Counted from the first letter of the stretch, positions 6,597 to 57,317 are shown. The stretch: DNA of 64,000 bases from an uncultured Gammaproteobacteria bacterium (GCA_964519725.1 CAZFKS010000005.1:6024-70023), one strand, 5' to 3'. Numbers and translations are program-made. The notes: generated by a model from the sequence alone, not told the origin.

Positions 6597-6625
6597 TTGA
6601 CCCGGTCATTACTTTTTATTAAAAT
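6597..6625 (+). promoter_or_regulatory. sigma70-like promoter (TTGACC, 17-nt spacer, TAAAAT) upstream of the GC-rich small ORF
   Basis: The -35 TTGACC at 6597-6602 and the -10 TAAAAT at 6620-6625 are separated by exactly 17 nt. They are followed by AGGAGG and then the ATG at 6656. Confidence 0.4.
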
Positions 6626-6655
6626 GATGCAGACATACTAGGAGGAATCGAGATC

Positions 6656-6958
6656 ATGACGCAGATTACGGCGTTCGAGATTATCCCTAACGGCAGGTGG
6701 TCACCGACCCTGATTGACATCCGGGCAGCCCAAAAGGCAAAAGGGCGGATTACCTTCCTGACTCGGATCTACGGAGGTCCAGAGCCAGTCCGCATCCCCT
6801 GTACCATCATCGAGGTTTCCTGCCCTGACCTGGCGGATGTGCCCGAAGAGTTCGTGTGCTGCACAGTCCAGGCCAAGGTGGATGGAAGTGCCCCAAAGTC
6901 ATTTATCATCACATATAATCCAGCCGACAAAAGGGGGGTCGGCATGGCCACTTCATGA
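6656..6958 (+). CDS. hypothetical 100-aa protein on a high-GC islet
   Basis: ORF with a canonical SD (ctAGGAGGaatcgagatcATG), GC-rich codons unlike its neighbours, followed by the hairpin at 6971-6997. No recognisable domain. Confidence 0.5.
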   Translation: MTQITAFEIIPNGRWSPTLIDIRAAQKAKGRITFLTRIYGGPEPVRIPCTIIEVSCPDLADVPEEFVCCTVQAKVDGSAPKSFIITYNPADKRGVGMATS

Positions 6959-6970
6959 TCTGAACCCATC

Positions 6971-6997
6971 CGTGCCCCGATGTTAATTCGGGGCACG
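6971..6997 (+). terminator. GC-rich hairpin after the 100-aa ORF
   Basis: Inverted repeat cgtgccccg ... cggggcacg with a 9-nt loop. A T-run follows about 20 nt downstream. Confidence 0.4.
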
Positions 6998-7075
6998 GCC
7001 ACACCACAGCATTCAGCTGTTTTTATTTTACAGTCAAAAAAATAAAAATATGTTACAATATACACACTAACTCCT

Positions 7076-9433
7076 ATGCCCCGTCGCGCTCAGGAAGAAT
7101 CTTCCCTTAACCCCACTTTATCCCGGGGGATTATTTTTATTGTTTTGGTGGTTTCGGCGTTCATTATTACACTGAGTTTTTTTGGTAAAGCTGGTCCAGT
7201 TGGGATCATGCTCAATGATTATGTACTCAGTTTTCTGTTTGGTGCGATTCGGTACACGGTTCCATTTATTATTTTAACTTTGGCCTGGTTTATTATTCGC
7301 GACACTGAGTATGATTACCGGCCAACCCATATTTTGGGCACTATTTTATTTTTTGTTTCACTCGGAAGTTTAGTTCACCTGCATTATCCACCAGAAGAAA
7401 TGTGGACCGCTGCGATTAATGGTCAAGGTGGTGGCGTGTTTGGGATGTTTGCCTGGGTTCTCAAAACATATTTAGGAACAATTGCTGGTGGCGCAATTTT
7501 GGTAGCACTTGGTTTAGTGTCAATTTTCCTGTTGTACAACACGGCAATTACACATTTTGTCATGCTCCACCGCGCGCTTTTGGCTGGCCTTGGTATGGTT
7601 GGAAACGGTCTCATTACCCTCTGCCGCAAATTATTTGTGCGCGAAAAATCTGGTGTAAATTTTAGTGTAAAAGGTGATTATTCCAAAGGTGATGAAGACG
7701 AGGAAGAAGTTGAAGAAGATGAAGACGCACCAGCTTTTGCCAAAAAGAGTTTAGCTGAAGAGGATGAGGAAGAAGATGAAGGCGAGGAGGATGAAGAAAT
7801 AGAAGATGAGGAAGAAGTTGAAGAAGATGAAGAGGAAGACGATCGGCCACCCCAAGGTGACGTGTGGTCAAAAAAAGTAGTGATTAAAAATTTACCACCA
7901 ATGGATTTACTGTCTGACAAACGTGGTAAACCAACTAGCGGTGATGTTGATGCGAATGCGGAAATTATTAAAAGCACCTTTGATCAATTTGGGATTGATG
8001 TCACTATGGGTGAAGTGCGCGTTGGCCCAACTGTAACGCAGTACACCATGAAACCAGCACCAGGTGTGAAATTGACCCGTATTACTGGACTTAGTCCAAA
8101 CCTCGCCCTCGCACTTGCCGCGCAAACCATTCGCATTGAAGCGCCAATTCCAGGCAAAGCTTTGGTTGGGGTTGAAGTACCAAACCAAAAAACCGCGATG
8201 GTCAGTATTAAGGAATTAATTGAAGACAAAGAATATCGTCAACGCCCACACAACATGATGATGGTACTAGGTAAAGATGTAGCCGGAAAAGTTTGGCTGG
8301 GTGAATTAACTCGCATGCCACACTTACTGATTGCTGGTGCGACTGGTTCTGGAAAAACTGTGTGTGTGAATACGATTATCATGGGTTTGTTGTATCAAAA
8401 CACCGCTGAAACACTGCGCTTTATCATGGTTGACCCCAAACGCGTGGAATTAACTTTGTACAATGGCATTCCACATTTGCTGACTCCAGTTATTACTAAC
8501 ACGCAAAAAACTGTTAATGCCCTCAAATGGACCATTGGTGAAATGGAACGCCGGTTTGAAGTTTTAGCAGCGGCTGGCAGTCGTGATATCAATTCTTACA
8601 ATCAAAAAAATCCGGCCAATAAATTACCGTACATTGTTTTTGTCATTGATGAATTGGCTGATTTAATGGCCACTGCGGCCAGTGAAGTTGAAGCTGGAAT
8701 TATTCGCATCGCCCAAATGGCGCGTGCGGTTGGTATTCATTTATTGGTGGCCACACAGCGTCCAAGTGTGGATGTCATTACTGGTTTAATGAAAGCGAAT
8801 ATTCCAGGACGCATCGCATTTTCGGTGGCATCAGCCATTGACTCACGCACCATTCTTGACTCACCAGGTGCTGAAAAATTACTTGGTCGCGGTGACATGT
8901 TATTCTCATCCGCTGACATGAGTAAACCAATGCGTATTCAAGGGGCCTATATTTCTGAAGAAGAAATGAAACGCATTGTGGAATATTTGAAAGGTGATGA
9001 AGAACCAGAATATGATGAATCAATTACTGGAGTTACCAATCAAAACGGTGGTGCCACCGGCAGTATGTTTGGTGGTCCAAGTGATGACCGCGACCCATTA
9101 TTTGAAGAAGCAAAAAAGTTTATTATTCAAGCTGGCAAAGCTTCAGCTTCGCTCTTGCAACGTCGGCTTAAAGTTGGGTATGCGCGCGCCGCTCGTTTAC
9201 TAGATGAATTAGAAGAAGCCGGCATTGTTGGACCAGCTGATGGTGCCAAACCACGTGAAATTTTGGCGACAGCGGCTGGATATGGTACAATGGATGCGCC
9301 TTCAGCCAGTTCTTTTGACCCAGTGACCGAAGAAGAAGCTGAAGACGAAGAAGATGAGGAAGAAGACCCTGAAGATGATGCAGTCGAAGATGAAATCGAC
9401 ACAGACGAACAAGGCAATCGGTTCCAACACTAA
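7076..9433 (+). CDS. ftsK: DNA translocase FtsK/SpoIIIE
   Basis: N-terminal TM helices and an acidic low-complexity linker. Walker A GATGSGKTVCVN, VDPKRVEL, LLVATQRPSVDVITG, and a C-terminal gamma winged-helix (LLQRRLKVGYARAARLLDELEEAGIVGP). Confidence 0.95.
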   Translation: MPRRAQEESSLNPTLSRGIIFIVLVVSAFIITLSFFGKAGPVGIMLNDYVLSFLFGAIRYTVPFIILTLAWFIIRDTEYDYRPTHILGTILFFVSLGSLVHLHYPPEEMWTAAINGQGGGVFGMFAWVLKTYLGTIAGGAILVALGLVSIFLLYNTAITHFVMLHRALLAGLGMVGNGLITLCRKLFVREKSGVNFSVKGDYSKGDEDEEEVEEDEDAPAFAKKSLAEEDEEEDEGEEDEEIEDEEEVEEDEEEDDRPPQGDVWSKKVVIKNLPPMDLLSDKRGKPTSGDVDANAEIIKSTFDQFGIDVTMGEVRVGPTVTQYTMKPAPGVKLTRITGLSPNLALALAAQTIRIEAPIPGKALVGVEVPNQKTAMVSIKELIEDKEYRQRPHNMMMVLGKDVAGKVWLGELTRMPHLLIAGATGSGKTVCVNTIIMGLLYQNTAETLRFIMVDPKRVELTLYNGIPHLLTPVITNTQKTVNALKWTIGEMERRFEVLAAAGSRDINSYNQKNPANKLPYIVFVIDELADLMATAASEVEAGIIRIAQMARAVGIHLLVATQRPSVDVITGLMKANIPGRIAFSVASAIDSRTILDSPGAEKLLGRGDMLFSSADMSKPMRIQGAYISEEEMKRIVEYLKGDEEPEYDESITGVTNQNGGATGSMFGGPSDDRDPLFEEAKKFIIQAGKASASLLQRRLKVGYARAARLLDELEEAGIVGPADGAKPREILATAAGYGTMDAPSASSFDPVTEEEAEDEEDEEEDPEDDAVEDEIDTDEQGNRFQH

Positions 9434-9441
9434 TTACCACT

Positions 9442-10152
9442 GTGCCTAACTTTACCAAAAAAAATCTCCAGGGTGAGCAGCGAGTTTGTTGGCGCTTACG
9501 ATCAATCCGTGAAGCGCGTGGTCTTACCATTGAAGCGCTCGCGAATCACACCAAAATTAACAAGGCCTATTTATTGGCTCTGGAAGACTGCCGGTTTAGT
9601 GATATCCCCTTCTCGGCCCTATACATTAAAAACTTTGTTAAAAAATACGTCCTAGCTTTGGGTGAAGACCCAGAACCATTTATTAGTCAGTTTTGCATTG
9701 AAGAATTAGACAATGTTCAAGTCGCGCCACCAGCTCCAAAACGAAATGCGTGGTTGTTTTTCACTGCCTGGCCATCAGTGGTGCGCAATAGTTTATTTGG
9801 ATTGGCCGGCTTATCCGTGGTTTTTTATTTAGGTTTGCAGGTTAAAGACACCATTTCCCCACCCAATCTATCACTGGTTGGCCCTGACAATGGTTTTATT
9901 GCTTATGACAACACCATTAGACTTCAGGGTGCCAGTGAACCAGCCACCACCGTGATGATCAATGGCCAAGCCATTAAAAGTGATGAGCATGGTAATTTTG
10001 CTGAAGCCATTGCCTTGACCCCAGGTGTAAACACCATTGTAGTTGAAGCCAAGAAAAAACACGGTAAGAGCACTCAAACTACCCGTCACATTATTTATCG
10101 CGAGTCTGAACACTTTAGTGCGCAGAGCAATGTTTTAGGCAGTACGAACTAG
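9442..10152 (+). CDS. RodZ-like HTH (XRE-type) membrane protein
   Basis: N-terminal HTH (GLTIEALANHTKINKAYLLALE), a single TM segment, and a C-terminal DUF4115-like domain. Confidence 0.7.
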   Translation: MPNFTKKNLQGEQRVCWRLRSIREARGLTIEALANHTKINKAYLLALEDCRFSDIPFSALYIKNFVKKYVLALGEDPEPFISQFCIEELDNVQVAPPAPKRNAWLFFTAWPSVVRNSLFGLAGLSVVFYLGLQVKDTISPPNLSLVGPDNGFIAYDNTIRLQGASEPATTVMINGQAIKSDEHGNFAEAIALTPGVNTIVVEAKKKHGKSTQTTRHIIYRESEHFSAQSNVLGSTN

Positions 10153-10208
10153 AATTTATACACCGTTTGTGCACATTGACGGGGCCAGACAAAACCCGTA
10201 CCATAAGA

Positions 10209-10230
10209 AGAGCCCAGGCTCTTTTTTTGT
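10209..10230 (+). terminator. intrinsic terminator
   Basis: Hairpin agagcc-cag-ggctct followed by a T7 run. Confidence 0.5.
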
Positions 10231-10251
10231 CCACCGCTTTAACTAAAACAT

Positions 10252-11334
10252 ATGCCAAAAATGTCTCAAGAACAACAGTCTAAAATGAAGGCCGCGGCCT
10301 CAGCTATTGATCAGATTAAAGAAAAGTTTGGTGATAATGCCATCATGCGCTTTGGTGAAGCCAAAAGTAGCCAAGTTGATGCCGTTCCAACTGGTTCGCT
10401 CTCTCTTGATATTGCGCTTGGGGTAAAAGGTGTGCCACGCGGTCGTATTATTGAAGTCTTTGGACCAGAAGCTAGTGGTAAAACCACCTTAGCTCAACAT
10501 ATTATTGCCGAAGTCCAACGTCGTGGTGGAATTGCCGCGTTTGTAGATGCTGAACATGCCCTTGACCCTGATTATGCGCGCAAAATTGGGGTAGACGTCG
10601 ACAACATGCTGATTTCTCAGCCAGATACTGGTGAACAAGCTCTCGAAATCGTGGAAACTTTGGTGCGTTCCAATGCCGTTGACGTGGTAGTGGTTGACTC
10701 AGTCGCTGCCTTGGTGCCAAAAGCGGAAATTGAAGGTGAAATGGGTGACTCACACATGGGTCTCCAGGCTCGGCTCATGAGTCAAGCCCTTCGCAAACTG
10801 ACTGGTATTATTAGTAAAACCAACACCGTGGTAATTTTCATTAACCAAATCCGCCAAAAAATTGGTGTATTCTTTGGTAATCCAGAAACTACCACTGGTG
10901 GTAATGCGCTGAAATTCTACTGTTCAGTGCGCATTGAAGTTCGCCGTGCTGCCCAAATTAAGCAAGGTGAAAAAATTATTGGTAACCGGGTGAAAGTTAA
11001 GGTAGTAAAAAACAAAGTGGCCGCCCCATTCCGCACGACTGAGTTTGATATCATGTATAACGAAGGTATTTCTGTAGCTGGTGATGTGCTTGATACTGGC
11101 GTGCTCCACCGCGTTATTGCCAAGTCTGGTAACAGTTACTCATTTGGCGAAGAAAAACTGGGGGTTGGTCGTGAAAAAGCCAAGCAATTCCTCAAGGAAA
11201 ATCCCCCACTCATTGCTGAAATAGTAGACAAAGTGTGGGAAGCAGTTATGCGCGGTGAATTACCTGAAGAAGAAAAAGGTAAACCAGGTGAAGCCGAGGA
11301 CATGGATGACGAAGTTCCGCCACCACTAGAATAA
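10252..11334 (+). CDS. recA: recombinase RecA
   Basis: [36 protein letters not shown] and other canonical RecA motifs. 360 aa with an acidic C-terminal tail. Confidence 0.97.
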
Positions 11335-11343
11335 AGTGAAAAT

Positions 11344-11380
11344 AAAAAAATCCTCTGTCAGTCGGCAGAGGATTTTTTTA
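11344..11380. terminator. bidirectional intrinsic terminator
   Basis: Hairpin aatcctctg ... cagaggatt flanked by A and T runs, between convergent recA and the SpoIID-like gene. Confidence 0.6.
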
Positions 11381-13231
11381 TTAGTAAATCCGGTGTAATT
11401 CAACGCCTGTGTAATAATATTTAATTAGTTGTACCCAATCAAGTTTTTCTTCTTCGGCTTTAATGGCCGCGTCACGCTGAGACATGCCAATTCCATGACC
11501 AAACATTGATTTATTATCGCGCTCATCATAAATCGCTGGGACTGAAACGAGCCAAGGTCGCTTTGCACCCCAAACCTCAGCCCAACTGCGCGTACGGCCA
11601 TCACTATTACCAAAATATGGTGTAATCACGACTTCATTATTATAGGTTACCATTTGTCCTCGAGTGGTATTTACGGCATCAATAAAGCGCGGCATAGCCG
11701 GTTCATTGGCTGCGCCTAAGTAGAGCTGATCACCAGTAGTAGCCACCACATCAAAGAACCGACTATCGTGTTTACTGGTAGTCTGAATGTAGTAAGCATA
11801 AGTCCGCTGGGCCACGGCCTGGGCTTTTAGATATTCAATTGGCGAACTATTCGCATTTTCCCCCATCCCAATCATGTAATCTTCAAAATTCAAATCATTA
11901 ATTAAATACAAGGAATTATTTTGGTCCTGAGCCTGACGCAATTCAAGTCCGCCGCGGTATTGATTGTAATTTCGACTGCGGCCAGAAATTTTACGCTCGT
12001 AATTAGAAATAGTAATAATCGCGTGTGGGTTAGTGGCTGGTTCAACCCGAATAAAAGTGCCTGAGGTGACACTAATTCCCTCAGCTTCAAATTTATAGGT
12101 TCCGCTTTTGAAACTTAATGTACCCACTGTGTTACGTGGTAAGGTGGCGAGAATGCCGGTTGCATCAACCACATTATAATCATCTTCAGCTGAAATTACT
12201 TTGGCCAGTCCTCCAGTTGGTTCTTTCCACAGTCCAACCCGAATGCGTGGCTCAGTGGCTAAGCGTGGTGATTCAGTTAAAAAGCCATAACCAGGCGCGG
12301 CTGTACCAGCAAATGGCTCAGTGTAATCACCTGGCGCATCAGCCGTCACGGTAATTGGAATTTTAATATCAGCGGTAGTTGGATTTTCCCCTTTAAAAGT
12401 CACTTTAAATTTAGCTTCATAGGTTCCAGTTTTAGGGGGCGCGCGGAAAGTAATTTGGTCACGCCAAAATTGGTCTTTGGGCACGCTAATGGTTTTATCT
12501 AAGGCCACTTGTCGACTAGACCAATTCACATCAGCCACATTGGTTGGTCCAGTTTGTTCAATAGTGGCCGCAGTCCAGGCAGTTTTCCCAATGTTTTGGT
12601 AACCAAATAACAACACTACTGGTTCACCCCCAGTGGTGTTCACGGTTTTTGGATTTAAAAAAATACGATTAGCGGTGCTATCAGTACTCGCACTTGGTTC
12701 AGTCACCACACTACTACTTGGCGGTGCCGTTACTTTAATTTTAACAAAAAAGTAACCATTTTTTACCCAGGAATAATTTTCTGAAGCCAGATAAAATTTT
12801 TCCGTATATTCACCAGGCTTCAAAGTGGCCGGCGCTTTAAATGTCACGGTTAATTTACCAGTTTGTCCAGGTTTAACCGTAGTCGCAATTTTTCCAGTTT
12901 GTTTGGCGGTGGTCCAATCTGACGCAAAAAACGCAGATTTTCGGTCGCGCGGTTCCATGGTGTAGGCCGAAATGTATTGGCCAGTGGAGGACCAAGTAGC
13001 GGTACCAGTATTTTTGAAAGTGAAAGTGATCGCCTTGCTAGTCCCAGCCTGGATTGTAACTGGGTCAGGCGCCGATTGGCTGACCAAACTAGCTGAATAA
13101 GCAGGATCTTTAACCGTGACTTGAGGCGTGGCCGCGTGCACCAAACTAGGAAAAATAGCTGCACCAAGCCAGAAAAAAAGTGAAAGAAAAGTTAATTTAT
13201 TTCGACGCATAGGTAGTTTGTATTTTACCAA
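11381..13231 (-). CDS. secreted SpoIID/LytB-domain protein with N-terminal tandem Ig-like repeats
   Basis: Signal peptide (MRRNKLTFLSLFFWLGAAIFPSLVHAA; alternative start at 13210). The C-terminus carries the SpoIID/LytB signature (YLKAQAVAQRTYAYY ... TPYFGNSDGRTRSWAEVWG). Repeated TFKNTGTATW-like beta-sandwich segments precede it. Confidence 0.8.
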   Translation of the reverse strand: MVKYKLPMRRNKLTFLSLFFWLGAAIFPSLVHAATPQVTVKDPAYSASLVSQSAPDPVTIQAGTSKAITFTFKNTGTATWSSTGQYISAYTMEPRDRKSAFFASDWTTAKQTGKIATTVKPGQTGKLTVTFKAPATLKPGEYTEKFYLASENYSWVKNGYFFVKIKVTAPPSSSVVTEPSASTDSTANRIFLNPKTVNTTGGEPVVLLFGYQNIGKTAWTAATIEQTGPTNVADVNWSSRQVALDKTISVPKDQFWRDQITFRAPPKTGTYEAKFKVTFKGENPTTADIKIPITVTADAPGDYTEPFAGTAAPGYGFLTESPRLATEPRIRVGLWKEPTGGLAKVISAEDDYNVVDATGILATLPRNTVGTLSFKSGTYKFEAEGISVTSGTFIRVEPATNPHAIITISNYERKISGRSRNYNQYRGGLELRQAQDQNNSLYLINDLNFEDYMIGMGENANSSPIEYLKAQAVAQRTYAYYIQTTSKHDSRFFDVVATTGDQLYLGAANEPAMPRFIDAVNTTRGQMVTYNNEVVITPYFGNSDGRTRSWAEVWGAKRPWLVSVPAIYDERDNKSMFGHGIGMSQRDAAIKAEEEKLDWVQLIKYYYTGVELHRIY

Positions 13232-13288
13232 AAATTGCCCGGCCGGGCAATTGAAAATTTGGATAAAATAAGGTTAAATACAGGCACT

Positions 13289-14722: not shown

Positions 14723-14723
14723 T

Positions 14724-15917: not shown

Positions 15918-15948
15918 AAAATATTGGCTCATCTTAGCCAATATTTTA
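15915..15948 (+). terminator. AT-rich perfect hairpin terminator
   Basis: aatattggct-catctt-agccaatatt followed by T residues. Confidence 0.45.
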
Positions 15949-15958
15949 TATATAATGG

Positions 15959-17581: not shown

Positions 17582-17584
17582 AGT

Positions 17585-18250: not shown

Positions 18251-18252
18251 AT

Positions 18253-19789: not shown

Positions 19790-19843
19790 AACCGGTAGGA
19801 TTGGCCCAGTATATCAAATTTTCGCACTGGCGAAAAATATTAC

Positions 19844-19933
<90 letters not shown>

Positions 19934-19975
19934 GATTGGCAACTTTGAACTTTTTAAAGCCAGTCATATAGCCAT

Positions 19976-20299: not shown

Positions 20300-20302
20300 T
20301 TT

Positions 20303-42787: not shown

Positions 42788-42793
42788 GCAAAC

Positions 42794-42819
42794 AAAAAAT
42801 CCCCACGTGGGGATTTTTT
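42794..42819. terminator. intrinsic terminator
   Basis: aaaaaatcccc-acgt-ggggatttttt. Confidence 0.6.
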
Positions 42820-42869
42820 AATAAAAATGGTTGGGCGGCGAGCGGGCGCGTCGTCGTCCAACGCGCGGC

Positions 42870-43124: not shown

Positions 43125-43185
43125 GACGATCTCCTTGGACAGACCAAATCTGTCTTAGTTTGTACTTATTTATCATATTTTAAAT

Positions 43186-45371: not shown

Positions 45372-45539
45372 ATTGACGATATTTTCCGACAACAAGTGAT
45401 TGCTGTTTTTTAGCTTATCCTAGCAAAATATCTATACCACAGAATGCAATTTTTGTCAATATGTACTATAATTGTAGACGAACTTTTTGTCCAGTGGTAA
45501 TGTTGGCCGTTGCCGATACTGGCAGCGAGGGAGGGGAGA

Positions 45540-46244: not shown

Positions 46245-46294
46245 ACGCTCCCCCGGTCGCAAGGCCGGGGTCAACTCTTTGCAAAGTGAGAAAT

Positions 46295-46321
46295 AAAAAA
46301 TCCCCGCCAGGGGATTTTTTA
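46295..46321. terminator. bidirectional intrinsic terminator between the convergent high-GC genes
   Basis: aaaaaatcccc-gcca-ggggatttttt. An upstream GC hairpin ccccggtcgcaaggccgggg and the palindrome ctttgcaaag also lie here. Confidence 0.55.
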
Positions 46322-46418
46322 TTTTAAACCAACTTAATATTCATTTAAAAAAAATAAATACTCAGTTAGGTTGCGCGGCCGATCCTTTTCGGACCAGTCA
46401 CCGCGCTTCCCTCCTGCG

Positions 46419-46994
46419 CTAGTCTTTGGTGATGGGGTCTGGGTCCCCTTCAGCCATTCCGTAGCGCTTTTGACCGCGATCAGTCTTGTGGTCGATGGTG
46501 CCATGTGACACTTCAACCACTGTGGCGCTGCAGAGCGGTCGCAGAACCAGCTGAACCGGTGAGCGATCGGGCCCAAACGTCTGGGGAACCTCCCCAACGT
46601 TCAGAACCGAGAGCACTGCGCCTTTCCAGTCGGCTGGGTCCGGGCGGTAGTTCTGGTCGAACACCACACCGGCCGGAATCACGAGCCGTTTTTTGGCCGG
46701 ACCAGTCTTGGCCACGACCTCGGCGAACCACCCTGGCGGTGGAACAAAGGTGAGTCCGGTGGCGAACTCGGCCGCTTGTCCGGGAAGGACTGTGAACTCC
46801 TCCACAGGAAACACGTCCCAGCCCGAGTCTGAGGCATGGGATTTGGTGGGAATTCTTCCCCCCATTTCCCGAGCCCTCGGGTGAAGGCTGAATTTGAAGA
46901 CCGCAGGGCCCTTTTCCTCGAGCCGAGAAATTCTCCAGTTGATCCAGCCGAATCCAAACACCACGACCGCTGTAACGACACTTTCAAAGACCAT
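46419..46994 (-). CDS. hypothetical high-GC protein (191 aa) with dUTPase/dCTP-deaminase-like beta-barrel motifs and an N-terminal TM segment
   Basis: SD cGGAGGGAGaaaagccATG at MVFESVV. Segments SDSGWDV, VAKTGPAKK, GVVFDQNYRPD and RSPVQLVL align with dUTPase motifs I, III, IV and V in order. GC3-rich. Confidence 0.5.
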   Translation of the reverse strand: MVFESVVTAVVVFGFGWINWRISRLEEKGPAVFKFSLHPRAREMGGRIPTKSHASDSGWDVFPVEEFTVLPGQAAEFATGLTFVPPPGWFAEVVAKTGPAKKRLVIPAGVVFDQNYRPDPADWKGAVLSVLNVGEVPQTFGPDRSPVQLVLRPLCSATVVEVSHGTIDHKTDRGQKRYGMAEGDPDPITKD

Positions 46995-47085
46995 GGCTTT
47001 TCTCCCTCCGTTTTTGGAGTCCAATTTTACCATAAGGTTATATTTTTTCAATATTACTTAATGTCTCAAAATAAATATTTAAAAA

Positions 47086-47118
47086 ATAAAAAATCCCCCG
47101 ATTCCGGAGGATTTTTTA
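47086..47118. terminator. bidirectional intrinsic terminator
   Basis: aaaaaatcccccg-attc-cggaggatttttt between the dUTPase-like gene and the nrdJ 3' end. Confidence 0.55.
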
Positions 47119-47135
47119 TTAACTATCCCATCTCT

Positions 47136-50633: not shown

Positions 50634-50714
50634 ATGGCGATTGTTAAGAGGTTTGAGTTAAAAAAACACCGACCGCCAGTCAAACTCTAGGGAATATCGG
50701 TGCGCTCCTTAATG

Positions 50715-50762
50715 AACTATATCTTGTGGTGCAAATTGATTTTGACCACAATATATTGTTTT
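50715..50762. promoter_or_regulatory. candidate tandem NrdR boxes upstream of nrdJ
   Basis: Two near-palindromic 16-mers, gaaCTATATCTTGtgg (50715-50730) and ccaCAATATATTGttt (50747-50762), match the NrdR-box core CwAtATaTwG. Their centres are 32 bp apart, the canonical tandem spacing. They lie 82-130 nt upstream of the nrdJ start. Confidence 0.45.
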
Positions 50763-50941
50763 TGACAGGCACGACGTATTATAACACAGACTTTTGGACG
50801 GTACTAGAATTGAGGGTTAAGGGGATTTTTTGACCTTAACAAAAGCAATTTTAATTGTGTCGCAAAACAAAAAAATTAAGTTATCCACATCGTCTAACAA
50901 AACTTGTTATTTTTCTGGTACAAACTTATACTTAGCAAACT

Positions 50942-51991
50942 ATGGAAGACGAACTCTGGGCAGACAATTCAGCGGATTTTGATCGATTAGTTGGGGCCGA
51001 CGCACAAACCGGCGAAGATCAAGTGGAAGTGACCTTGCGACCACAGCTTTTGGCTGAATTTATTGGCCAAGATCATATTAAAGACTCACTGGGGATTGCA
51101 ATTGCTGCGGCCGTGAAGCGGGGCGAGCCACTCGAGCATATTTTGCTGTACGGCAATCCTGGGCTTGGTAAAACCACACTAGCGCACATTATTGCCCGAG
51201 AAATGAGTGGGCATGTCAAAGTAACCTCTGGCCCAGCCTTGGAACGCGTAGGTGATTTGGCTGCGATTTTATCTAACCTCAAAACTGGTGATATTTTATT
51301 TATCGATGAAATTCACCGTTTAAATAAAACCGTTGAAGAAGTGTTATATAGTGCCATGGAAGATTTTGTGCTTGATGTGGTAATTGGCAAAGGCCCAGCG
51401 GCGCGCACCTTGCGCTTGCCACTGGAAAAATTTACGTTAATTGGCGCCACCACTAAATTAAATTTAGTCGCTGCCCCACTGCGTGATCGGTTTGGTCATG
51501 TGTTTCACTTAAATTTTTATGAGCCTCACGAAATTGCGACCATTGTCAAACGCAGCGCAGAAATTTTAAATTTAGAACTTGAACAAACTGCGGCTGACCT
51601 CATTGCCGGACGGGCCCGGCGCACACCGCGCGTAGCTAATCGTTTACTAAAACGCGGCCGTGATTACGCGGAAATTGCCGGGAATGGTATACTGTCAGCG
51701 GCCACGGCCCAAGCTTCACTCGATCTCCTAAAAATTGATACACACGGGCTTGATGAAGTGGATCGTAAATTGCTTACTAGTATTATTACTACTTTTGCGG
51801 GCGGGCCAGTTGGTTTAAATACCTTAGCCGCCGCAATTGCGGAAGACGTGGAAACGATTGAGGATATTTACGAACCATATTTACTACAACTTGGTTTTAT
51901 TGAACGCACACCGCGCGGACGCAAAGCCACGCGACTGGCATATTTACATTTAGGTCACCAACCAATAGCTCAATCTGGATTAGAGGTATGA
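50942..51991 (+). CDS. ruvB: Holliday junction branch migration helicase RuvB
   Basis: [13 protein letters not shown], Walker [15 protein letters not shown] and DEIHRL sensor motifs. Confidence 0.95.
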
Positions 51992-52260
51992 TCATTGCCC
52001 TACCACTGTATCTTTTTCTCTTCATTTACTTTGGCTTTTTAGCAATTTTTGTTTTATTTGTGGTAATTAATTTTTACCACATTGTTAGTAGTGGCGTTTT
52101 AACCGTAGTAAATTTTGTGGTCACAGTTTTAATTGCCGCGGTCACGGTGTTTGCCCTATTTGGCACTTACCAATTACTTAAAGATACTGATTGGAAACAA
52201 AGTGTGACAATTTTTGATTCTAGTTGGATCACCAATACTTTCCCTGAATCTAGTTTGTAA
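51988..52260 (+). CDS. small hydrophobic membrane protein (90 aa)
   Basis: Two or three predicted TM helices. Start overlaps the ruvB stop (ATGA). Confidence 0.45.
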
Positions 52261-52261
52261 T

Positions 52262-52807
52262 ATGAATTTGTCACATTTTACTAGACAAAAATCTTACGAA
52301 CACGTGGAATATGTGTTGCGCCGACACTGGTTTACTTTTTTGCCAGTGGTTTTTAGTTTTTTGGCCATGATTTTATTACCCATTGGTGTTTACTTTGGCA
52401 TTCAATATTTGTTTCCTGATTTATTAACTGGTCCAATGATCACCCCAATTTTAATTTTACTCGCGAGTGGATTTCTACTATTTGCGCTCATGTTTTTTTA
52501 CATTCAATTCATTGATTATTACTTGGATATTTGGATTGTAACTAATGATCGCATTATTGATACTGAACAAAAAGGTTTGTTTGCACGCACCGTGACCGAA
52601 CTGGAACTGTTTCAAATTCAAGATGTGACCACCAATGTCACAGGATTTTTCCCAACCATTTTAAAATATGGTGATTTGGTAATTGCGACTGCTTCAAACA
52701 CTTCGACAATTATTTTTCATGACATTCCTAATCCAGAATTTATCCGCCAGGAAATTGTGCGGCTTGCTGAAGTTGATCGTAGTTATCACACTGGTCGCAC
52801 GGTTTAA
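52262..52807 (+). CDS. membrane protein with a bacterial PH (bPH_2, YdbS/YdbT-like) domain
   Basis: Two TM helices then YYLDIWIVTNDRIIDTEQKGLFARTVTELELFQIQDV...KYGDLVIATAS. Start at MNLSHF. Confidence 0.7.
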   Translation: MNLSHFTRQKSYEHVEYVLRRHWFTFLPVVFSFLAMILLPIGVYFGIQYLFPDLLTGPMITPILILLASGFLLFALMFFYIQFIDYYLDIWIVTNDRIIDTEQKGLFARTVTELELFQIQDVTTNVTGFFPTILKYGDLVIATASNTSTIIFHDIPNPEFIRQEIVRLAEVDRSYHTGRTV

Positions 52808-52826
52808 CACCTGCCAGTAAATTAAT

Positions 52827-53120
52827 ATGGCGCCAATTGAAATTAATGTAGTGACTCTACTAACTGCGTACGGAATTATAATTAATTTGTACGCGTTTTT
52901 TATCTTCGGGTTTGATAAGGCCAGATCAGCGCAGGCTGGCGCGCGGCGCGTGCGGGAGCGAACTTTATGGTTAAGTATGTTTCTCGGTGGATCAATTGGC
53001 GCACTCGTGGGCATGTATTTGTTTCGGCACAAAACTAAAAAACTTTCTTTTCAGGCCATGGCCGCAGTCATTTTAATGCTTCAAATCTTGCTTTTTGTCT
53101 TCTTTTCCTCTAGTATGTAG
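52827..53120 (+). CDS. DUF1294-domain membrane protein
   Basis: FGFDKARSAQAGARRVRERTLWLSMFLGGSIGALVGMYLFRHKTKKLSF matches the DUF1294 signature. Confidence 0.75.
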   Translation: MAPIEINVVTLLTAYGIIINLYAFFIFGFDKARSAQAGARRVRERTLWLSMFLGGSIGALVGMYLFRHKTKKLSFQAMAAVILMLQILLFVFFSSSM

Positions 53121-53167
53121 CCCACGGACAATCGTGTCCGCCCTTTGCCTCGAAAGAGGTTCCAACC

Positions 53168-53488
53168 ATGATCCCCGGAAGGCACAGTTTTTCCCTGGAA
53201 GAAGGAGCGGAGCTGACGCTCCCAGCCTGGGCAGAGAGAACCATCTTCGCTTCCAAGCATGCGGACCGGTTCCCAGATACGCCGTGCGTGCTGCCCGTGC
53301 GCCAGTACGCTAGTGGGCTCTATGAGCCTGTGGCGCCGCGCCGAAAGGGTGGTACCAAGGAGATCGGACGCCATCTGTTCATCCCCAGCGGCGTAAAGGC
53401 GGGGGAAACCCTGTACATCCTGTGGGTGGACGACCGCTCTGCGGCCGCAGTCCGCAAGAAGGATCTACCCTCTCGCCCCCTCTGCTGA
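53168..53488 (+). CDS. hypothetical high-GC protein (106 aa)
   Basis: GC-rich ORF beginning right after the DUF1294 stop, with an SD (cgaAAGAGGttccaaccATG). Followed by GC-rich inverted repeats and a host-type terminator. No recognised domain. Confidence 0.45.
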   Translation: MIPGRHSFSLEEGAELTLPAWAERTIFASKHADRFPDTPCVLPVRQYASGLYEPVAPRRKGGTKEIGRHLFIPSGVKAGETLYILWVDDRSAAAVRKKDLPSRPLC

Positions 53489-53545
53489 CACCCTCCTCCT
53501 CCGACTCGGTGCGGCGCGCCAGCGCCCCGAGTCAACCCCATCTTA

Positions 53546-53571
53546 CAAAAAACGACTTTGGTCGTTTTTTT
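53546..53571 (+). terminator. intrinsic terminator
   Basis: aaaaaacgac-tttg-gtcgttttttt. Confidence 0.6.
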
Positions 53572-53602
53572 AATTGTTTTTTCTGCGCACAAATGATACA
53601 TT

Positions 53603-55261
53603 TTGATCAAACAATACTTTATGAAAGCATCTGATTTATTTGTTAAAGCCTTAGAAAACGAAGGGGTGGAATATATTTTTGGCATTCCGGGTGAAGAAAA
53701 TTTGGATTTACTGGAATCGCTACGCCAATCAAATATTAAATTAATTGTCACTCGCCACGAACAAGCCGCGGGTTTTATGGCGGCAACGTATGGCCGGCTC
53801 ACTGGCAAAACCGGTGTTTGTTTATCTACGCTTGGACCAGGCGCCACTAATTTTGTGACTGCAGCCGCGTACGCTCAGCTTGGGGCCATGCCAATGCTCA
53901 TGATTACTGGCCAAAAACCAATTAAAAAGAGTAAGCAGGGTCAATTTCAAATTGTGGATGTGGTTGGAATGATGAAACCGCTCACTAAATTTGCCAAACA
54001 AATTGTCAGCGCACACTCCATTCCATCCATGATCCGGGAAGCCTTCCGCATGGCCGAAGAAGAGCGACCAGGTGCAGTCCATTTAGAATTGCCCGAAGAC
54101 ATTGCGGCCGAAGACACTGATGCGCAAATTATTTTAGTTAATAAAGCTCGCCGCGCTGTGCCAGAAGAAAAAGCAATTACGCAGGCAGTGAAATTAATTA
54201 AAGCGGCCAAACACCCACTTTTATTAATTGGTGCTGGCGCAAATCGCAAATTAGTTTCCAAAATGCTGCGCGAATTTATTGATCACACTGGCATTCCATT
54301 TTTTTGCACGCAAATGGGTAAGGGTGTGGTTGATGAAAAGCACCCATTGTATTTAGGCACAGCCGCGCTTTCTGCAAATGATTATTTGCACTGCGCGATT
54401 GATCGCGCGGATTTAATTATTAATGTTGGTCATGATGTGGTGGAAAAACCGCCGTTTATTATGAAAGCGGGCGGGCCAAAAGTGATTCACATTAATTTTC
54501 TCAGCGCCAAAGTTGATGAAGTTTATTTTCCAAATTTAGAAGTAATCGGTGATATTGGCAATGCGATCTGGCAATTAAAAGAACAATTAACCCCACAAAA
54601 TAATTGGGATTTTGCGTATTTCTTGAAAGTAAAAAAACAGATTGATGAACATTTGGTGCGTGATGTGAGTGATGCGCGTTTTCCAATTATTCCGCAGCGG
54701 ATTGTGTCAGAGGTGCGGAAAGCCATGCCCGACAATGGAATTATTACGCTTGATAATGGCATGTATAAATTGTGGTTTGCGCGGTATTATCCGGCCTGCG
54801 AACGCAACACGATTCTACTCGACAATGCACTGGCCACTATGGGCGCCGGTCTACCGTCAGCCATGGCCGCAGCCCTCATGTATCCAGATAAAAAAGTTTT
54901 GACCGTGTGTGGTGACGGTGGTTTTATGATGAATTCACAGGAAATGGAAACTGCGGTGCGGTTAGGATTAAATTTAACCGTCCTGATTTTAAATGACAGT
55001 GGTTATGGCATGATTAAATGGAAACAAACGGCCATGGGCCACGGTGATTTTGGTTTAGATTTTGCAAACCCAGATTTTGTAAAATATGCTGAAGCGTACG
55101 GAGCGCATGGTTACCGCGTGACTAATAACGAGGAATTAGCCAACCTTTTACAAAAAACTCTCAGCACGCCTGGCGTACATTTAATTGATGTGCCAATTGA
55201 TTATTCCGAAAATGATCGCGTTTTGACCAAGGAATTACAGGCTAAACAATGTATTGTTTAA
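53603..55261 (+). CDS. acetolactate-synthase-like thiamine-diphosphate enzyme (large subunit family)
   Basis: N-terminal TPP_N (GIPGEENLDLLESL), a central domain, and C-terminal GDGGFMMNSQEMETAVRLGLNLTVLILNDSGYGMI (TPP-binding GDG...N). Alternative start at 53621. Confidence 0.85.
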   Translation: MIKQYFMKASDLFVKALENEGVEYIFGIPGEENLDLLESLRQSNIKLIVTRHEQAAGFMAATYGRLTGKTGVCLSTLGPGATNFVTAAAYAQLGAMPMLMITGQKPIKKSKQGQFQIVDVVGMMKPLTKFAKQIVSAHSIPSMIREAFRMAEEERPGAVHLELPEDIAAEDTDAQIILVNKARRAVPEEKAITQAVKLIKAAKHPLLLIGAGANRKLVSKMLREFIDHTGIPFFCTQMGKGVVDEKHPLYLGTAALSANDYLHCAIDRADLIINVGHDVVEKPPFIMKAGGPKVIHINFLSAKVDEVYFPNLEVIGDIGNAIWQLKEQLTPQNNWDFAYFLKVKKQIDEHLVRDVSDARFPIIPQRIVSEVRKAMPDNGIITLDNGMYKLWFARYYPACERNTILLDNALATMGAGLPSAMAAALMYPDKKVLTVCGDGGFMMNSQEMETAVRLGLNLTVLILNDSGYGMIKWKQTAMGHGDFGLDFANPDFVKYAEAYGAHGYRVTNNEELANLLQKTLSTPGVHLIDVPIDYSENDRVLTKELQAKQCIV

Positions 55262-56627
55262 TATGCCACTTATTTCTATTAACCCAACCACTGGTGAAAC
55301 TATTCGCGAATTTACCGAATTAAGACCTGAACAAATTGAGGCTAAGTTGGCTCTGGCCGCGCACGCGTTTCAAGATTGGAAAAATAAAAGTTTTACTGAA
55401 CGGGCGGAAAAAATGAAAAAGATTGCTGGGGTACTGCGCGTTAATGCCGAAAAATATGGCCTCATTGCTACACAGGAAATGGGTAAACCAATTAAAGAAG
55501 CCAAGGCAGAAGTGGAAAAATGCGCTTGGGTTTGTGATTATTACGCTGACAATGCGGAGAAATTTTTAACTCCAGAAATTGCACCAAGTGACGCAAGTGA
55601 AAGTTATGTGCGTTTTGACCCAATGGGTGCAGTCTTGGCCGTGATGCCCTGGAATTTTCCATATTGGCAACTTTTCCGTTTTGCGGCTGGGACAATTATG
55701 GCTGGTAATGTGGTAGTCATGAAACATGCGTCCAATGTGCAGGGTTGTGGCGAAGCAATTGAAGAAGCATTTAAATTAGCTGGTTTTCCTGAAGGTGTGT
55801 TTCAAAATTTGCCAGTTTCTTCTGGCGCCATTGAAGGCATTATTCGTGACAAAAGAATTATTGGTGTGACTTTAACTGGCTCAGAAAAAGCTGGTCGGTC
55901 AGTGGCTTCAATTGCCGCTGATGAAGTAAAAAAATCTGTCCTTGAACTCGGCGGCTCTGATCCATTTATTGTTTTGGAGGACGCAGATATTGCGGCCGCA
56001 GCGCAAGCCGCGACTATTTCCCGCTTAATGAATTGTGGTCAAGTGTGTCTCGCGGCCAAACGGTTTATTGTGGTGGAATCTGTGGCGGAAAAATTCTTAG
56101 CAGAATTTAAAACTGCATTTGAAAATTTTAAAGTTGGCGACCCAACGAGTACGGACACACAAATGGGCCCACTCATGAGTGCCAAAGCTGTGGAAGAAAT
56201 TGATAAACAAGTAAAACAATCAATCGAGAAAGGCGCGCGTTTAGTAACTGGCGGACAAAAATTAGACCGCGTGGGTAGCTTTTATGCGCCAACGATTTTG
56301 GCTGATGTAAGCGCTGGAATGGCGGCTTTTTTCGAAGAAATTTTTGGACCAGTCGCGGCTGTTATTACTGTAAAAAATGAAGCTGAAGCCATTCGTGTAG
56401 CCAATGACTCTGACTTTGGTCTCAGTGCTTCACTCTGGACTAATGATAAAGAAAAGGCTAAAAAACTCGCCGCACAAATTGAAGTTGGCTCAGTTTTCAT
56501 CAACGGAATGGTTAAATCTGACCCACGTTTACCGCTTGGTGGCGTCAAACGTTCTGGTTTTGGCCGCGAACTCTACTCATTTGGTATCCGCGAATTTGTA
56601 AACGTCAAATCAGTTTGGATTAAATAA
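55254..56627 (+). CDS. NAD(P)-dependent aldehyde dehydrogenase (succinate-semialdehyde-DH-like)
   Basis: Aldehyde dehydrogenase family motifs (FPYWQLFRFAAGTIMAGNVVVMKHAS, LTGSEKAGRSVA, ELGGSDP, catalytic C in MNCGQVCLAAKRF). Overlaps the upstream gene by 8 nt. Confidence 0.9.
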   Translation: MFNMPLISINPTTGETIREFTELRPEQIEAKLALAAHAFQDWKNKSFTERAEKMKKIAGVLRVNAEKYGLIATQEMGKPIKEAKAEVEKCAWVCDYYADNAEKFLTPEIAPSDASESYVRFDPMGAVLAVMPWNFPYWQLFRFAAGTIMAGNVVVMKHASNVQGCGEAIEEAFKLAGFPEGVFQNLPVSSGAIEGIIRDKRIIGVTLTGSEKAGRSVASIAADEVKKSVLELGGSDPFIVLEDADIAAAAQAATISRLMNCGQVCLAAKRFIVVESVAEKFLAEFKTAFENFKVGDPTSTDTQMGPLMSAKAVEEIDKQVKQSIEKGARLVTGGQKLDRVGSFYAPTILADVSAGMAAFFEEIFGPVAAVITVKNEAEAIRVANDSDFGLSASLWTNDKEKAKKLAAQIEVGSVFINGMVKSDPRLPLGGVKRSGFGRELYSFGIREFVNVKSVWIK

Positions 56628-56628
56628 T

Positions 56629-56892
56629 ATGAAAGACGCGGCCGAGCTAGCACTTAGTTTAGAAAAATTAAAAAACCAAGTACCACTGGGTGCGCGTTAT
56701 TTTCATTACAAAAATCCCAACCAATTTTACACCGTTGTTGCACACGGAATTATTGAAGCGACTGAGGAACTAGCCATTTCCTACCAAGCGGAGTATGATG
56801 ATAAACTTGTTTGGATTCGCCCGGCTTCGGTATTTTTGGAAGAAGTTGAGTGGGAAGGAAAATTTACACTTCGTTTTACGCGTGTAGCATAG
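56629..56892 (+). CDS. DUF1653-domain protein
   Basis: YFHYKNPNQFYTVVAHGIIEATEELAISYQAEYDDKLVWIRPASVF matches the DUF1653 pattern. Confidence 0.7.
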   Translation: MKDAAELALSLEKLKNQVPLGARYFHYKNPNQFYTVVAHGIIEATEELAISYQAEYDDKLVWIRPASVFLEEVEWEGKFTLRFTRVA

Positions 56893-56918
56893 TCGCAAAC
56901 AATTTTCTGTGTTAAAAT

Positions 56919-56951
56919 AAAAACATCCCGAGTATTTACAAAGGATGTTTT
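56919..56951. terminator. intrinsic terminator (long loop)
   Basis: aaaacatcc-(14-nt loop)-ggatgtttt. Confidence 0.4.
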
Positions 56952-57020
56952 AATTAATTTTCGAACGGGGTTCTGGCTGGACGCCGTCTCCCCGATCTGC
57001 TGGCAATTAGTTGTTCTTCT

Positions 57021-57248
57021 TTACTGAAACGCCAGGAGCGCGTTCAGCTCCTGCATGACCTCCTTCTTCTCTCCCTCAGGGAGATTTTCGAGGATTCTCT
57101 GGAGAGCTGGGGTTGCCAGTTCTGTGACACTGAGGTCACTAAGCAGCCCCGCGCGTCCGTCCTTTTGGCACTCCTCTACCTGCTCTCCGCAGGCGATGAA
57201 AATGAACTTGGAAGAGCTTCGAAATTCCCTGAATGATACGATAACCAT
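57021..57248 (-). CDS. hypothetical high-GC small protein (75 aa from MVIVSF)
   Basis: GC-rich segment 56950-57300 with an SD (gacGAGGTGGtATG). Helical, acidic C-terminal half. No recognised domain. Confidence 0.4.
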   Translation of the reverse strand: MVIVSFREFRSSSKFIFIACGEQVEECQKDGRAGLLSDLSVTELATPALQRILENLPEGEKKEVMQELNALLAFQ

Positions 57249-57317
57249 ACCACCTCGTCTGTGCCAGCAGACCGAGCACCCTACCAAATTTATCCTTTTT
57301 TGTCAATACCCAAGGAT

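Follow-up and report, generated by a model that had tools for sequence, protein, structure and literature searches.

Six GC-rich, Shine-Dalgarno-led units in a Magasanikbacteria-like chromosome may be long-term residents rather than recent imports

Introduction

In Bacteroidia, ribosomes that are blind to the Shine-Dalgarno (SD) sequence translate nearly all genes, and the strong SD of rpsU is read by ribosomes without bS21 (PMC9976891, PMC13000453). We analysed a 64,000-nt stretch of DNA (hereafter the window; CAZFKS010000005.1:6024-70023 of assembly GCA_964519725.1, deposited under an uncultured Gammaproteobacteria bacterium) in which six GC-rich open reading frames (ORFs), here called cassettes C1 to C6, carry strong SD sequences among native genes that have none. 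The original prediction, made from this DNA alone, had attributed the cassettes to repeated import from a high-GC donor, possibly a host of the organism, with the donor's translation signals simply kept; our results do not support that view. The explanation that we favour, at about even confidence, is that the cassettes are self-contained, GC-rich, hairpin-capped and SD-dependent units that have resided in the genome for a long time or moved between genomes of the candidate phyla radiation (CPR), with their composition maintained in situ. Their ultimate origin may still be foreign, and the claim concerns persistence and maintenance, not first origin.

Genes that stand out in GC content or codon usage are routinely read as recent horizontal gene transfer (HGT), and in CPR symbionts also as a clue to the host. 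Lawrence and Ochman reportedly modelled the amelioration of foreign genes, in which an excess of GC at third codon positions (GC3) serves as a clock or footprint of transfer, and Hershberg and Petrov, Hildebrand, and Raghavan are said to have described selection or GC-biased gene conversion favouring GC in bacteria. In aquifer Patescibacteria, 83% of inferred transfers took place within the phylum (PMC12455944). A full-text search of the literature found no paper on GC-rich, SD-led genes in CPR bacteria.

Results

Composition and borders of the six units

All six ORFs were present at the positions and in the frames given by the original prediction. On the plus strand lie C1 (6656-6958; 100 aa; GC 0.56, GC3 0.65), an ORFan, C3 (45540-46244; 234 aa; GC 0.59, GC3 0.62) and C5 (53168-53488; 106 aa; GC 0.63, GC3 0.72). 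The minus strand carries C2 (42870-43124; GTG start; 84 aa; GC 0.58, GC3 0.69), C4 (46419-46994; 191 aa; GC 0.59, GC3 0.66) and C6 (57021-57248; 75 aa; GC 0.53, GC3 0.65, with GC1/2/3 of 0.61/0.34/0.64). Compared with alternative ORFs on either strand, the chosen frames had the highest GC3 and a coding-like excess of GC1 over GC2. The atypical composition was confirmed, with GC of 0.53-0.63 and GC3 of 0.62-0.72 in the cassettes against a GC of ~0.43 for the window and a native GC3 of ~0.46 (ten large native genes pooled); along the window, GC formed five narrow peaks of 0.51-0.62 (400-nt windows). The GC steps were sharp (~30 nt wide) and lay 15-60 nt before the start codon and 45-75 nt past the stop codon. 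Each cassette was intact and fitted precisely between native genes, flanked by native sequence at either end. The cassettes were mutually unrelated in DNA and protein comparison and had no repeats elsewhere in the window, and C2 lies ~100 nt downstream of tRNA-Leu(UAA), both as had been predicted.

Each cassette looks like a complete, self-contained monocistronic transcription unit. Its order would be an AT-rich sigma-70-like promoter, then a GC-rich transcript made up of a short leader, a strong SD, the ORF and a GC-rich 3' stem-loop. Scanning found promoter-like sites in AT-rich DNA upstream of C1 and C4, and promoter-like elements were read from the sequence before C3 and C6 and, weakly, before C2 and C5. 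The GC-rich block appears to start a few bases past the -10 element, near the expected transcription start. Leader stem-loops were present in C2, C3, C5 and C6, and the SD of C4 and of C5 is able to pair with an upstream CUCC or CCUC. A GC-rich stem-loop stood 3' of every ORF (-16 to -32 kcal/mol, z -1.9 to -5.2), often followed by a native A-tract/T-tract terminator. No known RNA family in Rfam matched any cassette at E<=1 except for chance hits on terminators. The description of the cassettes as foreign-looking in composition and translation signals holds.

Strong SD sequences are confined to the cassettes

We scored SD energy against the 16S 3'-tail ACCUCCUUA over positions -20 to -4. The values were -10.2 (C1), -8.5 (C2), -11.9 (C3), -10.0 (C4), -6.5 (C5) and -6.5 kcal/mol (C6), and the 52 other window genes, with starts taken as the longest start or first ATG, had a median of -1.5 and a best value of -5.8 kcal/mol. 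The predicted contrast was therefore borne out: energies of -6.5 kcal/mol or below occurred in 6/6 cassettes versus 0/52 native genes (Fisher p ~2.5e-8). Inside the cassettes, only 15% of 17-nt windows reached -6.5 kcal/mol, so that six of six SDs at the right place are not a by-product of GC-richness (0.15^6 ~1e-5). The weakest were those of C5 (AGAGGT) and C6 (GAGGTGG, with a spacing of only ~4 nt). Native genes showed a different start context, with T at -1 in 48/52, A-rich positions -2/-3 and no SD; among the cassettes, T(-1) was found in C6 only.

At a related locus (L017), T stood at -1 in 18/21 genes; T(-1) looks like a lineage-specific start context, possibly reflecting extended pairing with the initiator tRNA. 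Across related loci, ORFs with high GC3 were enriched for SD (odds ratio 7.9, p = 2e-4; crude call on 268 ORFs), and further Magasanikbacteria loci also had GC-rich, SD-led ORFs, unrelated to those of the window and in most cases lacking a Pfam domain. High-GC CPR lineages were also considered as SD-using donors. A crude scan of such loci, where start prediction is weak, gave SD use of 5% in L019 (GC 0.60) and 21% in L013 (GC 0.51), and this candidate was rejected for the little SD use in both.

The window comes from a Magasanikbacteria-like chromosome

The window encodes core genes including rpoB, ftsK, class II ribonucleotide reductase (RNR), RuvB, EF-P and transketolase (tkt), together with 3 tRNAs. 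Its RNR was 73-78% identical to the RNRs of metagenome-assembled genomes (MAGs) of Candidatus Magasanikbacteria/Magasanikiibacteriota and of a few differently labelled MAGs. The local order RuvB, bPH, DUF1294, RNR, prenyltransferase, cob(I)alamin adenosyltransferase and AI-2E transporter was common to the window and those MAG loci. RNR identity and shared gene order therefore indicate a Magasanikbacteria-like member of the CPR/Patescibacteria, which are ultra-small bacteria. No closer relative than those MAGs was found among the 185,579 species-representative genomes scanned.

C2 and C3 share their position and divergence with sister species

A contig from another sample (L083) had the same order as the window: transporter, C2, tRNA-Leu, adenosyltransferase, prenyltransferase, TrmB and C3. 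Its native proteins were 74-88% identical to those of the window, compared with 55-59% for C2 and 68-69% for C3. The order TrmB-C3-RNR or C3-RNR also occurred in L084/L085, L098 and L099. C3 had 8 homologues, all at 59-68% identity, and in all five cases in which the contig was read the gene sat in the same slot. Identity at four-fold sites was 0.43-0.59 for the C2/C3 orthologs versus 0.43-0.53 for most neighbours (one neighbour 0.25-0.44). C3 matches its neighbours in this respect and has therefore co-diverged with the genome. These results indicate that C2 and C3 were inherited vertically, are not recent, and were probably present in the ancestor of the sister species.

The C2 and C3 proteins were under purifying selection, as codon positions 1 and 2 were more conserved than position 3 (0.66/0.68/0.46 identity at positions 1/2/3 for C2 in L083) and indels came in multiples of three. 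Both evolved much faster than their neighbours (0.59-0.69 vs 0.74-0.92 aa identity). GC3 of the C2/C3 orthologs was 0.50-0.62, against ~0.33-0.41 in most neighbours (one 0.48). We counted substitutions in C3 by parsimony as singleton changes in three- and five-taxon comparisons. Third-position changes from strong to weak bases (S->W) and from weak to strong bases (W->S) stood at 56:41, where native rates predict ~2.3:1 (chi-square p ~0.01). The implied stationary GC3 was 0.48-0.57 for C3 and 0.39-0.46 for neighbours, with a method that is biased towards 0.5. This pattern favours, without being conclusive, a partly maintained composition.

The signals around both genes were conserved as well. 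The C2 leader (43131-43154, minus strand) has a 7-bp stem-loop at 43138-43154 followed by the SD AAGGAG at 43131-43136; in L083 the hairpin is kept with changed sequence and the SD is AAGGGAG. The 3' GC-rich stem-loop of C2 (42840-42871, minus strand; -20.4 kcal/mol, z -3.1) is near-identical in L083 and, by reading of the window against L083, better conserved than the C2 coding sequence (CDS). The C3 leader (45467-45538, plus strand) comprises a -10 box TATAAT at 45467-45472, a stem-loop at 45508-45527 and the SD AGGGAGGGGAG at 45528-45538. All five C3 orthologs keep the TATAAT. L083, L084 and L098 retain the -10 box, leader hairpin, SD and 3' hairpin, with changed loop and stem bases in the leader hairpin and compensatory changes; L099 retains the -10 box and both hairpins, and the stretch retrieved for it does not show the SD. 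The 3' stem-loop of C3, CCCCGGTC/GGCCGGGG (46251-46270, plus strand), occurs in five orthologs with compensatory changes (helix 33). Conservation of the SD among orthologs suggests that it is in use.

C3 matched PF14518 (Haem_oxygenas_2) at 6e-13 (49.4 bits vs a cut-off of 28.9), which indicates a haem-oxygenase-like di-iron enzyme of the Haem_oxygenas_2/CADD/TenA/PqqC superfamily; no PDB sequence matched it. Residues invariant in the 8 homologues include D73, E74, H84, E135, H181, E182, H184, D185, H189 and E190, and the invariant His, Glu and Asp, which stand where such an enzyme is expected to bind its metals, are putative metal ligands.

Past the C3 terminator in L083 (positions 4400-4500) there is a short GC-rich piece with GAGGGAGG and then an ATG that opens an AT-rich ORF. 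This ORF runs off the contig and is unrelated to C4.

C4 is a lineage-specific insertion from a family that stays GC-rich

Alignment with the empty sites of three sister genomes (L084, L098 and L099) placed the C4 insertion at 46324-47083 (C4 on the minus strand). In those genomes C3 is followed by one terminator and then by the RNR stop codon, and the window has ~760-800 extra bases there. C4 is thus a real lineage-specific insertion. Within it, the GC-rich C4 transcript has an AT-rich spacer on one side and an AT-rich promoter region on the other. Along the minus strand, C4 has a promoter-like TTGAAA-16-TAAAAT (47051-47024; scan match), the SD GGAGGGAG (47002-47009; -10.0 kcal/mol), which can pair with an upstream CUCC, and a 3' GC-rich stem-loop (46360-46419; -31.3 kcal/mol, z -4.9). 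The promoter and spacer that came with C4 are AT-rich, which suits an AT-rich source, be it a different CPR genome or a different place in this one, better than a high-GC host. An intra-CPR origin of C4 is in line with the within-phylum bias of transfer (PMC12455944).

Bidirectional terminators bound the insertion: copy 1 (46291-46323), which is common to the sister genomes, forms an imperfect direct repeat with copy 2 on the far side (47084-47120). As a target-site duplication this pair is ambiguous, since the window has further terminators of this form (42793-42820). The terminator arms flanking C4 are 15/15 and 15/17 identical and are single-copy in the sister genomes. Intergenic bidirectional terminators of the one form AAAAAATCCCC-loop-GGGGATTTTTT were seen in the window at 42793-42820, 46291-46323 and 47084-47120, and also in L083, L084, L098 and L099.

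In profile searches C4 matched TIGR00576 (4.7e-10, below the curated cut-off), a PHROG dUTPase (1e-6) and, with the family profile, PDB dUTPases (1e-7), so that C4 is probably a divergent protein resembling the trimeric dUTPase superfamily. Its relatives, 4 homologues and 3 metagenome loci at 49-70% identity, all lay on lower-GC contigs (flank GC 0.36-0.55) judged to be of CPR type from gene content and composition only. The relatives had a gene GC of 0.61-0.72 and a GC3 of 0.72-0.95, were always GC outliers (+0.1 to +0.25 over their flanks) and were always SD-led. With the window, the family loci L086/L093, L091, L092, L094 and L095 make six copies, five of which adjoin, in divergent orientation, a TrmB-family regulator. 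The family cluster reads nucleoside deoxyribosyltransferase-like (NDT), TrmB, C4-like and YfbR-like HD, and would belong to nucleotide salvage.

Four-fold-site identity among C4-family members was 0.25-0.51, against 0.29-0.41 expected from composition, which places these sites at or near saturation. The six copies nevertheless had a GC3 of 0.66-0.95, compared with 0.28-0.55 in neighbouring genes. Synonymous saturation with persistent GC3 therefore argues that GC is maintained where the gene resides and not carried over in un-ameliorated imports; this is a much simpler account than six diverged, unsampled high-GC donors acting recently. It is a stronger argument for maintenance than the C3 substitutions, and we regard it as decisive. 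Ordinary dUTPases at 27-28% identity had a GC equal to that of their flanks.

This C4 copy alone has an N-terminal extension of ~30 residues (46908-46994) with a segment, VVTAVVVFGFGWINW, that reads as hydrophobic; in the family alignment the other members start ~30 residues later. In L094 (positions 4531-4950), a housekeeping-type gene for nucleoside diphosphate kinase (NDK) directly upstream of the C4-like gene is SD-led and has a GC3 of 0.75 vs 0.28-0.44 in its neighbours. L095, the contig of the C4 homologue with a GC3 of 0.95, has a further GC-rich stretch (0.57-0.65) at 6500-7400, just upstream of a dCMP-deaminase-like ORF.

Excess and covarying RNA structure in C3

GC-rich transcripts folded at ~-0.35 to -0.48 kcal/mol per nt, compared with ~-0.23 to -0.29 for native ones, and high absolute stability accompanied GC-richness in every case. 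Beyond composition, the C3 CDS reached z -9.6 against dinucleotide shuffles and -9.85 against synonymous-codon shuffles, and four C3 orthologs gave z -4.1 to -8.7 and -4.5 to -6.1, respectively. Native genes had z of ~-1.6 to +0.7 in the window and -2.1 to +1.5 in related loci. The C4 of this genome reached -5.0, and C2 gave -3.8 and -4.9. Excess mRNA structure as a general cause of GC-richness was rejected, because beyond the C3 family it stood out in just two genes, C4 and C2 of this genome.

The RNAalifold consensus of five C3 orthologs had 224 pairs, with 85% of cells paired. Both sides had changed in 40 pairs, versus 20.5 +/- 3.1 in column shuffles (0/500 reached 40) and 10-14 in controls with slid partners. 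In this fold, distant 3' segments are the pairing partners of the region around the SD and start codon. Third positions in pairs were GC-richer than unpaired ones (0.55-0.69 vs 0.45-0.53; pooled odds ratio 1.65, p = 3e-5).

Two related loci (L004:2142-2923 and L011:8930-9690) have in common, between RuvB and RNR, a conserved segment of ~0.75 kb that is rich in GC (up to 0.60). Its ORFs are broken and overlap, Rfam gave no match, and it could represent either a structured RNA not yet described or a GC-rich gene in decay. At this position the window has just a 308-nt AT-rich spacer.

Tests of donor, mobility and assembly

The best homologues did not lead to a high-GC donor: close homologues of C2, C3 and C4 occurred only in the same or related lower-GC CPR-like genomes, and searches with these three, capped, of limited sensitivity and in one case dependent on shared words, found no homologue in a high-GC context. 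The original prediction had named closest homologues in the low-GC lineage as evidence that would refute it, and the host-to-symbiont transfer that it proposed is largely refuted for C2, C3 and C4. Its broader claim of horizontal acquisition stands for the C4 insertion and fails for C2 and C3, which are syntenic and vertically inherited in sister species.

Scans of IMG/VR viral contigs with C1, C3, C4 and C5 gave no close relative (the best was a 27%-identical dUTPase), and PHROGs gave only the generic dUTPase match for C4. A phage moron or prophage remnant was rejected, with no close viral relative in these scans and core genes as neighbours. The attC pattern RYYYAAC-N30-125-GTTRRRY had 4 matches in the window, none at a cassette, and no integrase was found among the window genes scanned. 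Integron cassettes were rejected, as the units lack attC core sites and are scattered singly over 50 kb. No mobility gene adjoined any cassette, and no direct repeats flanked them except the duplicated terminator around C4. Site-specific integration of C2 at tRNA-Leu was likewise rejected: there is no tRNA-end repeat, and the arrangement is kept in L083.

Independent Logan contigs (SRR11567520) carried C1 between rpoB and ftsK, and C2, C3 and C4 in the same context, which speaks against chimeric assembly. Orthologous cassette junctions were present in at least 4 other samples or assemblies, and the architecture of the C4 family also appeared in JGI contigs. For C5 and C6, no independent contig was recovered.

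Features of C1, C5 and C6

C1 is preceded in AT-rich DNA by a promoter-like site TTGACC-17-TAAAAT (6597-6625, plus strand; scan match 10/12), which may act as its promoter, and the GC-rich block begins a few bases downstream. The SD AGGAGG (6640-6645, plus strand; -10.2 kcal/mol) lies 10 nt before the ATG. The 3' end (6970-7020, plus strand) has an 11-bp GC-rich stem-loop (-29.5 kcal/mol, z -5.1) and then a small hairpin with a T-run, giving a terminator-like site at 7006-7020. C1 had no homologue among 5.8 billion proteins and no family match, and its single-sequence structure model was poor (pLDDT 56). In the long rpoB-ftsK spacer, a moderately GC-rich and seemingly structured stretch (6290-6400, upstream of rpoB, minus strand) adjoins C1; it had no Rfam match at E<=1.

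The C5 leader (53121-53160, plus strand) is GC-rich from right after the DUF1294 stop codon. It has a stem-loop at 53125-53140 and the SD AGAGGT at 53155-53160 within a CCUC/GAGG hairpin, and a weak promoter TTGCTT-17-TAGTAT was read from the sequence at the end of the DUF1294 gene. A GC-rich stem-loop (53503-53533, plus strand; -32.4 kcal/mol, z -5.2) follows the ORF, and the terminator scan found a native terminator at 53547-53570 on the same strand. C5 belongs to a small family of ~100-aa proteins, with 15 cluster representatives at E<=1e-3, from which an alignment was built. The model (pLDDT 84.5) predicts a small beta-rich domain; its fold had no significant PDB match, only insignificant OB/TRAM-like barrels.

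C6 is the least certain of the six ORFs, with no family match and no homologue retrieved. On the minus strand, divergent from tkt, it has a promoter-like TTGACA-17-TAGGGT (57306-57278) read from the sequence. Pairing and folding gave the SD GAGGTGG (57250-57256) with a leader hairpin, and the 3' stem-loop lies at 56963-56997 (-16.3 kcal/mol, z -1.9).

A block of native composition (53603-59144) with a TPP-dependent enzyme, aldehyde dehydrogenase, DUF1653 and transketolase stands between DUF1294 and EF-P, which are neighbours, with 70-750 nt between them, in four relatives that are more distant (L003, L005, L010 and L011). C5 lies at the left edge of this block and C6 within it.

Discussion

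The coupling of GC-richness and SD in the cassettes can be pictured in terms of the start mechanism. Native genes would initiate without SD from leaders that are A/T-rich, unstructured and have T at -1. The strong folding of a GC-rich mRNA would close this route and make SD:anti-SD pairing necessary, and the terminal hairpins with a GC-rich body may make the RNA long-lived. The conserved C3 fold covers the start region and the SDs of C4 and C5 can pair with upstream CUCC/CCUC, so translation may be gated. As for the force that keeps GC high, the transcript-matched borders and the C3 covariation point, tentatively, to selection on RNA.

We extend this tentatively to the whole group. Two initiation regimes may coexist in this CPR group: a bulk of SD-less genes with T(-1), and a minority that is GC-rich, folded, hairpin-capped and SD-dependent. 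GC might then be held above equilibrium by selection on RNA, at a population-scaled S of ~2-3, with persistence at conserved loci and occasional moves between CPR genomes, a suggestion in which our confidence is below even. Equally tentative is the idea that C3 is the extreme case, a protein-coding mRNA whose start is masked by its own conserved fold of 0.8 kb, for gated or specialised translation on a logic like that of rpsU in Bacteroidia but unrelated to it.

Several points weigh against long residence with maintained composition. The comparative evidence covers C2, C3 and C4 of the six cassettes. Folding in excess of what composition gives is pronounced only in the C3 family and, in this genome, in C4 and C2; for C1, C5, C6, the remaining C4-family members and the GC-rich ORFs in relatives, z ranges from ~+1.3 to -2.7. 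The same five sequences served both to derive the C3 fold and to test it, and structure prediction is biased towards GC-rich stretches. Parsimony polarisation in C3 works on nearly saturated sites, and S->W changes still outnumber W->S. The sensitivity of the homologue searches was limited, and donor lineages may be unsampled. In a survey, only about half of the 16S sequences from Parcubacteria showed the anti-SD motif (PMC9297842).

A serious rival is old transfer with slow, incomplete amelioration, in which genes came from moderately or highly GC-rich, SD-using donors before the sister split (C4 after it), have since drifted towards the composition of the recipient genome and kept an SD that was needed or harmless. 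We consider this less likely than not. The atypical GC and GC3, the SD without the native T(-1) context and the ORFan or narrow-family status would all follow from it, and HGT into Patescibacteria is documented, mostly within the phylum (PMC12455944). The C3 orthologs, with a GC3 of 0.50-0.62 and S->W somewhat more frequent than W->S, are also compatible with neutral decay: a start at ~0.75 with the native four-fold identity of ~0.48 gives, by estimate, today's values. Old transfer fits C3 alone, however, and not the C4 family, which is saturated yet has a GC3 of 0.66-0.95 in six genomes, five with TrmB, and would need many recent imports into the same slot. Nor does it sit well with the lack of any homologue in a high-GC context, a C3 substitution ratio flatter than native rates predict, the conserved and covarying C3 mRNA fold, or the AT-rich control regions of the inserted C4 unit. 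Recent transfer from a high-GC host (an actinobacterium, for instance) that left the donor signals in place is far less probable still. Donor-like composition and SDs speak for it, as do the absence of C4 from three sister genomes and the restriction of C1 to this genome; C2 and C3, by contrast, are common to the sister species and have co-diverged with them, and for C2, C3 and C4 the nearest relatives are on CPR-like contigs of lower GC. C4 came with AT-rich control DNA, and mobility genes, att-like repeats and attC sites were not found. Nor does a GC3 of 0.62-0.72 reach what a gene newly arrived from a genome of 65-70% GC should show.

GC-biased gene conversion, which would make the cassettes hot spots of allelic exchange among strains or species, with the conserved flanking hairpins and terminators as homology arms and GC driven up by recurrent repair of heteroduplexes, appears improbable to us. 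It would account for fast-evolving C2 and C3 proteins between conserved elements of the untranslated regions (UTRs), for the duplicated terminator flanking C4 and for high GC at all codon positions and in the UTRs. Synonymous divergence of C3 nevertheless equals that of its neighbours, with no sign of a wider allele pool, and the sharp GC steps coincide with transcript ends. The required bias, estimated as a population-scaled S of ~2-3, is far above that reported for bacteria. An assembly or binning artefact, with chimeric joins of high-GC reads in a low-GC contig, has a negligible chance of being right. C5 and C6 do lack independent assembly support; against this stand the Logan contigs, the orthologous junctions elsewhere, the JGI contigs and the intact units between native genes.

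If long residence with maintained composition is true, this gene class would mislead host inference and compositional HGT detectors in Patescibacteria. The cassettes would be a case of gene-specific, long-term GC maintenance in a bacterium, which bears on what opposes AT-biased mutation, and a handle on translation initiation in the CPR, some members of which are reported to have lost the anti-SD. C3 would be an mRNA with conserved structure at levels like those of viral genomes. For gene calling, start prediction in these genomes needs two models.

Among known systems, the closest functional analogy would be rpsU of Bacteroidia, where a genome nearly free of SDs likewise keeps a small minority of genes with strong, conserved SDs. 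The cassette genes, however, are not rpsU or rpsR: they encode di-iron oxidase-like, dUTPase-like and unknown proteins, not bS21 or bS18. In the Bacteroidia system, bS21, bS18 and bS6 occlude the anti-SD. Their SDs are weaker (-6.5 to -12 vs below -13 kcal/mol), they are GC-rich as a whole, and the native context is T(-1) and A/T-rich, not the A-3/-6/-12 of Bacteroidia. Integron gene cassettes share the compact form of a ribosome-binding site, a small ORF and an imperfect 3' palindrome, usually with unknown function; they differ in that the units here show no R''/R' cores at their ends and form no array, that no integrase appeared among the window genes scanned, and that every unit comes with a promoter-like site. 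Genomic islets and phage morons are also single-gene promoter-ORF-terminator units with sharp GC borders in intergenic positions, mostly encoding small unknown proteins, and they vary in presence among sister genomes, as C4 does here. Unlike morons, the cassettes have no viral relatives and occupy core chromosome instead of a prophage, C1 lying between rpoB and ftsK and others beside RNR and tkt; unlike either, C2 and C3 are vertical, the atypical GC outlasts synonymous saturation, and the control regions are native-like and AT-rich. Models of amelioration and of selection for GC share with our reading the use of excess GC3 as a clock or footprint and a force that opposes AT-biased mutation. 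In the cassettes, by contrast, the excess is gene-specific, large (+0.2 to +0.45 GC3), sharply bounded and coupled to the SD, and it persists beyond saturation.

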